Source: a virus (lineage: Duplodnaviria; Caudoviricetes). From it: a DNA stretch of 64,000 nucleotides. Of the stretch, positions 34,633 through 35,431 are shown one piece after another. The notes below the pieces were generated by a model. The model was not told the DNA's origin and did no database searches. It saw only the letters and a program-made list of their open reading frames with translations. The position numbers and the translations under genes were made by a program. How positions within the stretch are numbered: position 1 is the first letter of the stretch; each line of letters begins with the position of its first letter. Location: IMG/VR virus record IMGVR_UViG_3300000101_000005, one strand, 5' to 3'.

Positions 34633-34902
34633 TTATCTTCTGCTAAGGATTGCTAGAAGTTCTTGTTGGCCAACAGTTTTAAGAAGAACGTTCATATTGT
34701 CTATTTCTGCTTGAGCTCGTTCTAAATGTATGTTACGTTTAGTTTGACGATGCATAATCATGTGCTGACTATGATTATCAATGAGCTTTTCTAGTGCTTT
34801 AGATAACTGACGAACATCGTGTTTGAACATAGAATGGTTCTTGTTCCATTTTTTCACTTGTTCTCTTAATAAAGAGAAGTCTTTGTCGTCTTTTATCTCC
34901 AT
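34633..34902 (-). CDS. Hypothetical helical protein (89 aa), probably leaderless
   Basis: The ATG lies 6 nt after a TATAAT box and has no SD. Confidence 0.65.
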   Translation of the reverse strand: MEIKDDKDFSLLREQVKKWNKNHSMFKHDVRQLSKALEKLIDNHSQHMIMHRQTKRNIHLERAQAEIDNMNVLLKTVGQQELLAILSRR

Positions 34903-34908
34903 GCTAGT

Positions 34909-34937
34909 ATTATATAGTATTTTGGACAGTTAGTCAA
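34909..34937 (-). promoter_or_regulatory. Sigma70-type promoter TTGACT-N17-TATAAT
   Basis: -35 at 34937-34932, -10 at 34914-34909, 17-nt spacer. Confidence 0.85.
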
Positions 34938-34938
34938 G

Positions 34939-34963
34939 AAAAAAGACACCGAAGTGTCTTTTT
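34939..34963 (-). terminator. Intrinsic terminator with a cUUCGg loop (possibly bidirectional)
   Basis: Minus strand reads AAAAAGACAC-TTCG-GTGTCTTTTTT. Confidence 0.85.
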
Positions 34964-34965
34964 AA

Positions 34966-35180
34966 TATAAGCAAAATAGGTAGGACTTGGGTACACCTAC
35001 AAGCACGGACCTGAATACCATTCTGTTCCGTACAACCTAACCCCGCTAGTGAATGCGATGTGATACTGCCTATCTCTAGTACAGCACCTGGGTACCACCC
35101 CTGGTTAGTCAAGTTCAACCCTTCTGGTAAAGGCTTCTTCCTTGCACTATAAACAAAAGTTAATTACTCTTTTGTTGCTA
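34966..35180 (-). ncRNA. Candidate independently transcribed structured ncRNA (~215 nt plus terminator), family unknown
   Basis: It has its own sigma70-like promoter and UUCG terminator, is GC-richer than its flanks, forms many nested stems and has no credible ORF. Confidence 0.65.
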
Positions 35181-35187
35181 TATTATT

Positions 35188-35215
35188 AATATAACACAAA
35201 ATAAGTATTTGTCAA
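35188..35215 (-). promoter_or_regulatory. Sigma70-type promoter TTGACA-N16-TATATT with extended TG
   Basis: -35 TTGACA at 35215-35210, TGn-TATATT at 35193-35188. Confidence 0.65.
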
Positions 35216-35236
35216 CCTCTTTTATTTTGGATAAAA

Positions 35237-35431
35237 CTATATATTATTACTTGAAGTAACAGAAATATGTTTTAGTACTTTGCCAGTATTCTCGCCACTT
35301 TTTACAGTATATCCACTAGTACCACTACCATTAATATTTGGCTCAGAACGTGACATCATTAAGATGCGTTCCTTACGAGCTCTCATTTTTGCCTCGCGGT
35401 ATGTTTTGTGTAAATGATCGAATCTGTTCAT
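35237..35431 (-). CDS. Small basic protein (64 aa) downstream of the glutamine riboswitch candidate
   Basis: ATG 35431 follows SD AAGGAGG. The ORF-track start at 35470 lies inside the aptamer and is rejected. Confidence 0.7.
   Translation of the reverse strand: MNRFDHLHKTYREAKMRARKERILMMSRSEPNINGSGTSGYTVKSGENTGKVLKHISVTSSNNI

Follow-up and report, generated by a model that had tools for sequence, protein, structure and literature searches.

The viral record IMGVR_UViG_3300000101_000005, analysed here as a single window of 64,000 nucleotides (nt) to which all coordinates refer, carries on its minus strand a genuine gene, complete in itself, that encodes a folded RNA of approximately 243 nt. 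The gene belongs to an uncultured marine phage, and the sequencing runs that contain the stretch are marine or seawater metagenomes. The RNA is a new, slightly sub-threshold member of a known family and not a new class; it is almost certainly a divergent subgroup member of the manA family (RF01745), which Weinberg et al. (2010, PMC2864571) described as a riboswitch candidate that resides in 5' untranslated regions (UTRs) and occurs in marine metagenomes, cyanophages, and a few gamma-proteobacteria. In this window, the element probably functions as an autonomous, trans-acting manA RNA of a marine T4-like phage.

Family membership and conserved fold

A sensitive scan of a 451-nt region aligned model positions 1-192 of RF01745, which is the whole of the model, with 35174-34970 (54.7 bits, E 2.4e-13), and all of the helices of the family are present in the cmscan alignment and kept in the subfamily model described below. 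An earlier note on this stretch, made from the sequence alone, had proposed an undescribed RNA, a novelty that by its own account a hit to a described family would remove; the comparison with Rfam using Infernal returned precisely such a hit. Apart from manA, the scan of the region yielded no match with E < 0.3 and no ribozyme family, and ARAGORN identified neither a tRNA nor a tmRNA. What speaks against the assignment is that the score lies 0.5 bit below the Rfam gathering cut-off of 55.2 bits, which is an operational threshold and not a biological feature; because of this shortfall, a default scan of the window at gathering thresholds did not list manA. Several relatives in the same alignment score above the cut-off, including the copy in phage Mosig (64.0 bits) and four loci (L003, L018, L011, and L010) with 55.9-57.9 bits. 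The highest of these four values belongs to L003, which is approximately 90% identical to the window over the 370-nt stretch compared. Among 18 relatives' loci that were tested, only four reach the Rfam cut-off and all 18 score 96-240 bits with the subfamily model, such that routine Rfam annotation would miss most of the phage subgroup (14 of the 18 loci).

The likeness to manA encompasses the same helices in the same order over all 192 model positions, together with conserved sequence: the AGUG after P2, a GGUGGU-type L5, a GNRA-capped P6, and the 3' side of P9/P2. The marine phage habitat is likewise shared, and a sigma70 promoter lies directly upstream, as it does in the canonical copy of the Prochlorococcus phage, P-SSM2 (181.6 bits to RF01745). 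Unlike the family as described, the window RNA possesses a terminal helix, P0, for which the Rfam model has no counterpart; because the RNA is succeeded by a terminator of its own and then by a separate promoter, it is not part of a 5' UTR; and its carrier phage has a capsid protein that is closest to those of jumbo T4-like phages of Proteobacteria, not cyanophages. No manA match was found in Syn9 or S-PM2. The closest copy in a cultured phage is that of the Pelagibacter phage, Mosig EXVC030M (MT647606.1, 108164-108371), where it is intergenic and unannotated in the GenBank record. The Mosig copy is 71% identical across the RNA and has a promoter of the same type, but no terminator follows it; a rubrerythrin gene of the replication module begins approximately 22 nt beyond its end.

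Relatives were collected with a short conserved pattern, which recovered at least 119 IMG/VR viral contigs and gave 91 distinct stretches of 370 nt. Covariation among these metagenomic homologues, which the earlier note had proposed as a check, bears out the structure. The structure taken from Rfam, with one helix added, was evaluated on 48 sequences that share less than 95% identity and had been aligned with MAFFT (A1); of the cells, 90.2% are paired, and both sides have changed in 46 of the 63 pairs. None of 500 shuffles scored as high, and only 36-51% of cells were paired when the 3' partners were slid. From this alignment a subfamily covariance model (R1) was derived, and its search of the window yielded a single copy, with 229 bits. 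When 100 hits were aligned to the model (A2), 94.9% of cells were paired, a value that leans towards structure because the alignment was fitted to the model. The predicted fold of the window RNA itself (-75.5 kcal/mol, z = -3.05 relative to dinucleotide shuffles) comprises a 5' hairpin of 8 bp after the promoter and a multi-branched domain of approximately 190 nt.

Much of the structure drawn in the earlier note stands. Its 5' hairpin, CUAACC/GGUUAG, GUGCUG/CAGUAU with the GAGA cap, CGC/GCG, UACGGA/UCCGUG, GAAU/AUUC, and GUAGG/CCUAC all match the manA consensus and the covariation. The CCUU/AAGG helix also covaries, with a true extent of GCCUUU/AAGGGU. Two other elements had to be redrawn: the proposed GGGU/ACCC is replaced by P5, a GGG/CCC stem with a 6-nt loop, and the proposed closing stem, UAUAG-GCAAG/UUUGC-UUAUA, does not covary, with 485 of 500 shuffles reaching its count. 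Instead, the RNA is predicted to be closed by P2 together with the terminal helix, P0. In P2 (AUAG/CUAU), the outer pair covaries as A-U, C-G, and G-C, and in P0 all six pairs change on both sides across the relatives (A2). For example, AAGC/GCUU is exchanged for AUGC/GCAU, and AAGU/ACUU is found in the most divergent clade. P0 starts 5 nt past the -10 hexamer, so the predicted transcript would begin at the very helix that seals its own two ends.

The loops of the RNA also covary. Seven hairpin loops were cut from the model-based alignment, the best antiparallel complementary run was scored per sequence for each loop pair, and the scores were compared with 2000 permutations of one partner among the sequences; column-based counting of loop contacts was dropped, since the pairing register shifts between subgroups. 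Three of the 21 loop pairs stand out, namely L5-L7 (z 7.5), L8-L9 (z 6.6), and L3-L8 (z 4.8). The next-highest pair, L3-L5 (z 2.9), is accounted for by the UGGUA that L5 and L8 share. The L5-L7 contact occurs in six or more co-varying loop combinations, including UGGUA/UACCG, GUGG/UCAC, UUGUC/GACAG, UUGC/GCAG, and UUAU/AUAG. Corresponding swaps are seen for L8-L9 (GGUAU/GUACC, AUGGAAU/AUUCCAU, and CAGA/UCUG) and for L3-L8 (UACCA/UGGUA and ACCU/AGGU). The earlier note had paired the last loop (L9) with GGUAC, which lies in L5, and this contact finds no favor in the permutations (z -0.2). The other partner that it named, ACUUG, is included in GAACUUGAC, which the collection pattern held fixed.

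These loop pairs can be compared with the contacts seen by cryo-electron microscopy (cryo-EM) in five manA RNAs, which assemble into pentamer-based octamers, decamers, or a 60-subunit icosahedral cage (bioRxiv 10.64898/2026.07.01.735769). According to this July 2026 preprint, one class is held together by L5-L7' and L8-L9' kissing loops, and the other by L5-L7', L3-L8', and a contact between the GNRA loop L6 and its receptor (bioRxiv 10.64898/2026.07.01.735769). The RNAs belong to the same family, the three kissing contacts of the cryo-EM structures are the only loop pairs that covary here, and L6 is a GNRA loop in both (GAGA in the window RNA). As far as sequences can tell, this agreement is striking. 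The two sets of RNAs differ in that assembly has been seen with the former, in vitro, whereas the window RNA is known from its sequence and the identity of its loops is inferred.

A dedicated promoter and terminator

The sigma70-type promoter of the RNA (Table 1) is strongly maintained among the relatives: 80 of the 91 distinct stretches have 10 or more matches out of 12, at a distance that does not vary. The TTGAC of the -35 hexamer is 97-100% conserved, the two bases of the TG extension 95% and 86%, and the -10 hexamer 93-100% at five of its six positions; overall, the hexamers are 93-100% conserved except at position 5 of each. The spacer columns are only 35-60% identical, and 50 distinct spacers occur among the relatives. 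The canonical manA copy of P-SSM2 has a TTGACA-16-TATAAT promoter in the same place, and a dedicated promoter is therefore a trait of the family.

At the other end of the gene, the hairpin AAAAAGACAC-UUCG-GUGUCUUUUUU, which is GC-poor but clear, forms in the minimum free energy (MFE) fold, though it is absent from the list produced by a simple terminator scan. Downstream genes and terminators were counted in 80 distinct contexts, and in 41 of these a hairpin with a U-run is found in the same place, with approximately 18 different stem sequences; in all but three of the 41, the terminator ends 27-42 nt past P0. The gap between the 3' strand of P0 and the terminator stem is 3 nt in the window, and there is no overlap with the fold. 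In all 39 relatives with a terminator that were tested, the terminator, intact, stands alongside the manA fold in the full-length MFE structure. When the terminator is disallowed in these relatives, the mean cost is 12.6 kcal/mol versus 11.8 kcal/mol for the hairpin alone, which argues that there is no antiterminator, and no compensating alternative pairing appeared in any of the 39.

The transcript would thus start at 35183-35180, which is 5-8 nt past the -10 hexamer, and end within the U-run of the terminator. Because it is provided with its own conserved promoter and terminator, the RNA is probably a discrete molecule of approximately 243 nt. The earlier note's central claim, a stand-alone, non-coding, multi-stem RNA with a sigma70 promoter and a UUCG terminator, is sustained by the 11 of 12 promoter matches, the terminator in the MFE fold, and the folding z-score. 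A second promoter, which serves the adjoining gene for an 89-amino acid (aa) protein, starts right after the terminator; it marks the 3' boundary of the RNA, lies outside it, and is kept in four relatives (L003, L019, L037, and L085). Parts of the stretch are also contained in six marine RNA-library runs, from which assembled Logan contigs were mapped at a depth of 2-16, without ends or strand. Among these contigs there is no back-joint over the RNA of the kind that a circular form would give, although contigs are not able to display one.

Table 1. Positions of the manA gene, its predicted parts, and adjoining features in the window
Feature	Position	Strand	Remarks
Sigma70-type promoter	35215..35188	-	TTGACA-16-TATATT, 11/12 matches
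-35 hexamer TTGACA	35215-35210	-
TG extension	35196-35195	-
-10 hexamer TATATT	35193-35188	-
Predicted primary transcript	34939..35183	-	~243-245 nt; from promoter and terminator positions
P0, 5' strand AUA-u-AGC	35177..35183	-	Very 5' end of predicted transcript; pairs with 34972-34967
manA RNA core	34970..35174	-	P1 hairpin, P2, P3, P4 junction enclosing P5-P7, P8, P9
Loop L3, UACCAGA	35123..35129	-	Complementary to L8 (UACCA/UGGUA)
Loop L5, GUGGUA	35093..35098	-	Complementary to L7
GNRA tetraloop GAGA	35073..35076	-	Caps P6
Loop L7, AUUCACUA	35047..35054	-	UCAC pairs with GUGG of L5
Loop L8, core UGGUA	35016..35020	-	From complementarity and permutation test
Loop L9, UGUACCCAAGU	34985..34995	-	GUACC pairs with GGUAU of L8
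P0, 3' strand GCUUAU	34967..34972	-	Three bases before terminator stem
Intrinsic terminator	34963..34939	-	Stem AAAAAGACAC/GUGUCUUUUU, UUCG loop, U-run
62-aa open reading frame, TTG start	34930..35118	-	Inside RNA; not a gene
Second promoter, for 89-aa gene	34937..34909	-	TTGACT-17-TATAAT, 11/12 matches
89-aa open reading frame	34633..34902	-	Function not assigned; neighbour, not conserved partner

Neighbouring genes and RNAs

The genes that follow the manA RNA are diverse. The single-strand DNA-binding protein gp32 is encoded downstream in 26 contexts, all without a terminator, and is followed in number by a 148-aa protein of unknown function (17 contexts), the 89-aa open reading frame (ORF) found in the window (five), a cold-shock protein (five), a 139-aa unknown (four), mannose-6-phosphate isomerase/cytidylyltransferase (three), rubrerythrin (three), a radical SAM protein (one), and peroxiredoxin (one). 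In total, at least ten unrelated gene families occur downstream, with no common pathway. The RNA itself is found in two layouts: a stand-alone cassette of promoter, RNA, and terminator, as in the window, versus a leader type, exemplified by Mosig, P-SSM2, and the gp32 contexts.

Two leader-type arrangements deserve description. In the 26 gp32 contexts (L005, L010, L021, and approximately 23 others), gp32 is preceded at 60-100 nt by a manA RNA that has no terminator and whose promoter, TTGACA-17-TATAAT, is perfect. The gp32 protein of T4 regulates its own synthesis via a pseudoknot in the leader, and by analogy manA may occupy that leader position in these phages. In P-SSM2, a hairpin with a U-run after regA overlaps the -35 hexamer of the manA promoter (positions 1455-1500 of locus L139; 142791-142836 of the record), and the manA RNA ends 15 nt before the ATG of a gene annotated purL.

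The 89-aa protein of the window belongs to no PHROG or Pfam family. Since the downstream ORFs of the relatives fall into unrelated groups, it is not a conserved partner of the RNA, and the partnership suggested in the earlier note is unlikely. Its ATG lies 7 nt past the -10 hexamer of the second promoter, at the expected +1, and lacks a Shine-Dalgarno sequence; judging from this arrangement, the gene is probably read from its own leaderless mRNA in a T4-like phage. Nearby head genes, namely those for the protease, scaffold, and major capsid protein, are T4-like, and the capsid protein, with approximately 70% aa identity, is closest to those of Sinorhizobium phage Phosso, Vibrio phage 2.275.O, GAP32, and CBB, all of which are jumbo T4-like phages of Proteobacteria.

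The window also contains other structured RNAs on the same strand. A glutamine riboswitch (RF01739, 58 bits) at 35503-35454 lies directly upstream of a 64-aa basic ORF (35237-35431, minus strand; phrog_32989). The homologous stretch in the Methylophilales Melnitz phages is annotated as "SsrA" in GenBank and looks like a mis-annotated glutamine riboswitch; in a megablast of 20 kb against phages, it was the only stretch that matched. A freshwater-2 RNA (RF02980, 54.4 bits) at 34613-34538 lies immediately upstream of a 130-aa ORF (34540-34148). The order of glutamine riboswitch, manA, and freshwater-2 recurs in L003, L017, L031, and L038/L040, and the trio recurs in the most divergent manA clade as well, which marks the 1-kb RNA island that follows the capsid gene as conserved; L074, a short stretch, has the glutamine riboswitch and manA only. 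A contig from one RNA-library run (X16) connects 35196 directly with 35511, leaving out 314 bases. The cassette of glutamine riboswitch and 64-aa gene, right at the manA promoter, thus appears to be missing from a related phage, and the junction suggests modular gain and loss of RNA cassettes. Finally, a full-length Polynucleobacter-1 RNA (RF01718, 59.4 bits) is located elsewhere in the window, at 49648-49504 on the minus strand.

Probable function in trans and its alternatives

There is a good likelihood that the window element acts on its own and in trans. In such a scheme, the sigma70 RNA polymerase of the host would produce the discrete RNA of approximately 243 nt early in infection, and P0 and the terminator hairpin would protect its ends. 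The RNA would then act in trans as a folded particle, with no metabolite sensing on behalf of the 89-aa gene. Copies would join by the three loop-loop contacts to form closed, pentamer-based oligomers, like other manA RNAs in vitro, and the oligomers would provide a scaffold, or a sponge, for some factor of host or phage origin; a decoy role, as the earlier note had suggested, or a scaffold role is possible. By analogy with the cryo-EM structures, oligomers of the window RNA may form in vivo, although this step is open to considerable doubt. It is tempting to go further and suggest that marine-phage manA is not a riboswitch, but an early autonomous RNA gene whose product self-assembles via L5-L7, L8-L9, and L3-L8 into RNA-only oligomers or cages that sequester or scaffold a factor; this broader proposal is offered as speculation that is rather unlikely to hold in full.

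Precedents exist for parts of the trans-acting scheme. In Listeria, the terminated riboswitch transcripts SreA and SreB reportedly act in trans, as Loh and co-workers are said to have found in 2009. Like the window RNA, they have a riboswitch-like fold that ends at a terminator and are released as small RNAs, but the Listeria RNAs are proven ligand-binding aptamers that have a cis function too, whereas no ligand, target, or alternative fold is evident for the window RNA. ROOL, GOLLD, OLE, and raiA are large, self-assembling RNAs of bacteria and phages that have been the subject of cryo-EM work in 2024-2025. Like manA, they are ornate RNAs that often constitute their own genes, and they multimerise by loop-loop contacts; unlike manA, they are much longer and unrelated in sequence, and no Rfam match to any of them was found in the window region.

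The alternative with the longest pedigree is the cis-acting riboswitch or attenuator, the original hypothesis for the family (Weinberg et al. 2010, PMC2864571), in which binding of a metabolite by the manA domain would determine whether transcription continues past the terminator into the 89-aa gene. It accords with the classification of manA as a 5'-UTR riboswitch candidate by Rfam and by its discoverers (Weinberg et al. 2010, PMC2864571), with the classic layout of an ornate, conserved fold followed by a terminator, and with the position of terminator-less relatives 13-90 nt before gp32, rubrerythrin, or peroxiredoxin, or 15 nt before the purL-annotated gene in P-SSM2. For the window RNA, this explanation is unlikely. 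The terminator lies outside the fold, beyond the 3-nt gap after P0, its stem sequence varies freely among relatives in which the fold is constant, and forbidding it goes uncompensated in 39 of 39 cases. Moreover, a promoter with 11 of 12 matches stands between the terminator and the 89-aa gene, the ATG of which is at the expected +1 without a Shine-Dalgarno sequence, so a read-through RNA would be poorly translated, and the downstream genes of the family have no pathway in common. A more modest role, as a local element that senses nothing (a transcription insulator, or an RNA-stability or processing module placed between the capsid operon and the genes that follow) or as a terminated RNA that base-pairs in trans like SreA of Listeria, is suggested by the RNA island and its recurrence in other contigs, and by the occurrence of the promoter-RNA-terminator cassette in several genomic contexts. 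Yet insulation does not require a 200-nt fold in which even the loop sequences are conserved, and the co-varying loops pair with each other, with no visible external target (no search for target complementarity was made); such a role is improbable.

The two remaining explanations have very little in their favor. Silence of the default Rfam scan at gathering thresholds would be expected of an undescribed class of RNA, be it a ribozyme, a decoy, or a partner of the 89-aa protein, but the full-length manA match (E 2.4e-13) refutes the novelty of the class, the aligned relatives include members above the Rfam cut-off, the ribozyme of the earlier note matches no ribozyme family in the Rfam scans, and the 89-aa gene adjoins the RNA in only five of 80 contexts; this explanation is highly improbable. 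Least credible of all is that the stretch encodes a 62-aa peptide with a TTG start (34930-35118). The frame is open in the window, but in 64 of 66 distinct relatives the start codon is missing and stops interrupt the frame inside 50 codons, the relatives differ in length without favoring any of the three frames, and the substitutions are compensatory for RNA helices. The earlier note had likewise set this ORF aside, and no conserved protein-coding signature was found, with the ORF surviving in just two of the 66.

Several observations weigh against an autonomous, self-assembling RNA. Expression as a discrete molecule is deduced, with both transcript ends placed from the sequence only, and some of the RNA-library contigs cross the promoter (35137-35305) and the terminator (34905-35007), which could be due to read-through or to carried-over DNA. 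No terminator is present in about half of the relatives or in the P-SSM2 copy, and the RNA there immediately precedes a gene, be it gp32, rubrerythrin, or the one annotated purL; a cis role is therefore conceivable for the manA family. With respect to the loops, covariation does not separate contacts within a molecule from contacts between molecules, and sequence relatedness inflates the permutation z-scores, for which the other 18 loop pairs serve as an internal control. Loop numbers were assigned by counting helices, with the GNRA character of L6, as in the preprint, as the sole check. Finally, manA assembly has been seen only in vitro, at approximately 3 mg/mL RNA and 10 mM Mg, and the authors of the structures still call manA putatively cis-regulatory (bioRxiv 10.64898/2026.07.01.735769).

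The manA RNA has been an orphan "riboswitch candidate" since 2010, and the cages that it forms in vitro were reported in 2026. The additions made here are the P0 helix, the terminator statistics, and the covariation of three loop pairs. Together, the locus and more than 100 relatives give the RNA natural boundaries, in the form of a conserved promoter, a terminal helix predicted to join its ends, and a terminator, and for about half of the copies they speak against regulation in cis. If the trans-acting, self-assembling reading is true, the promoter-RNA-terminator cassette with its ends sealed by P0 would be the natural unit that makes such particles, and the loop covariation would be the first genomic evidence of selection on the manA contacts seen in vitro. 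Exactly the three loop-loop contacts of the cryo-EM structures appear to be maintained by co-variation in wild phage populations, and the biological relevance of manA assembly thereby becomes a testable question.

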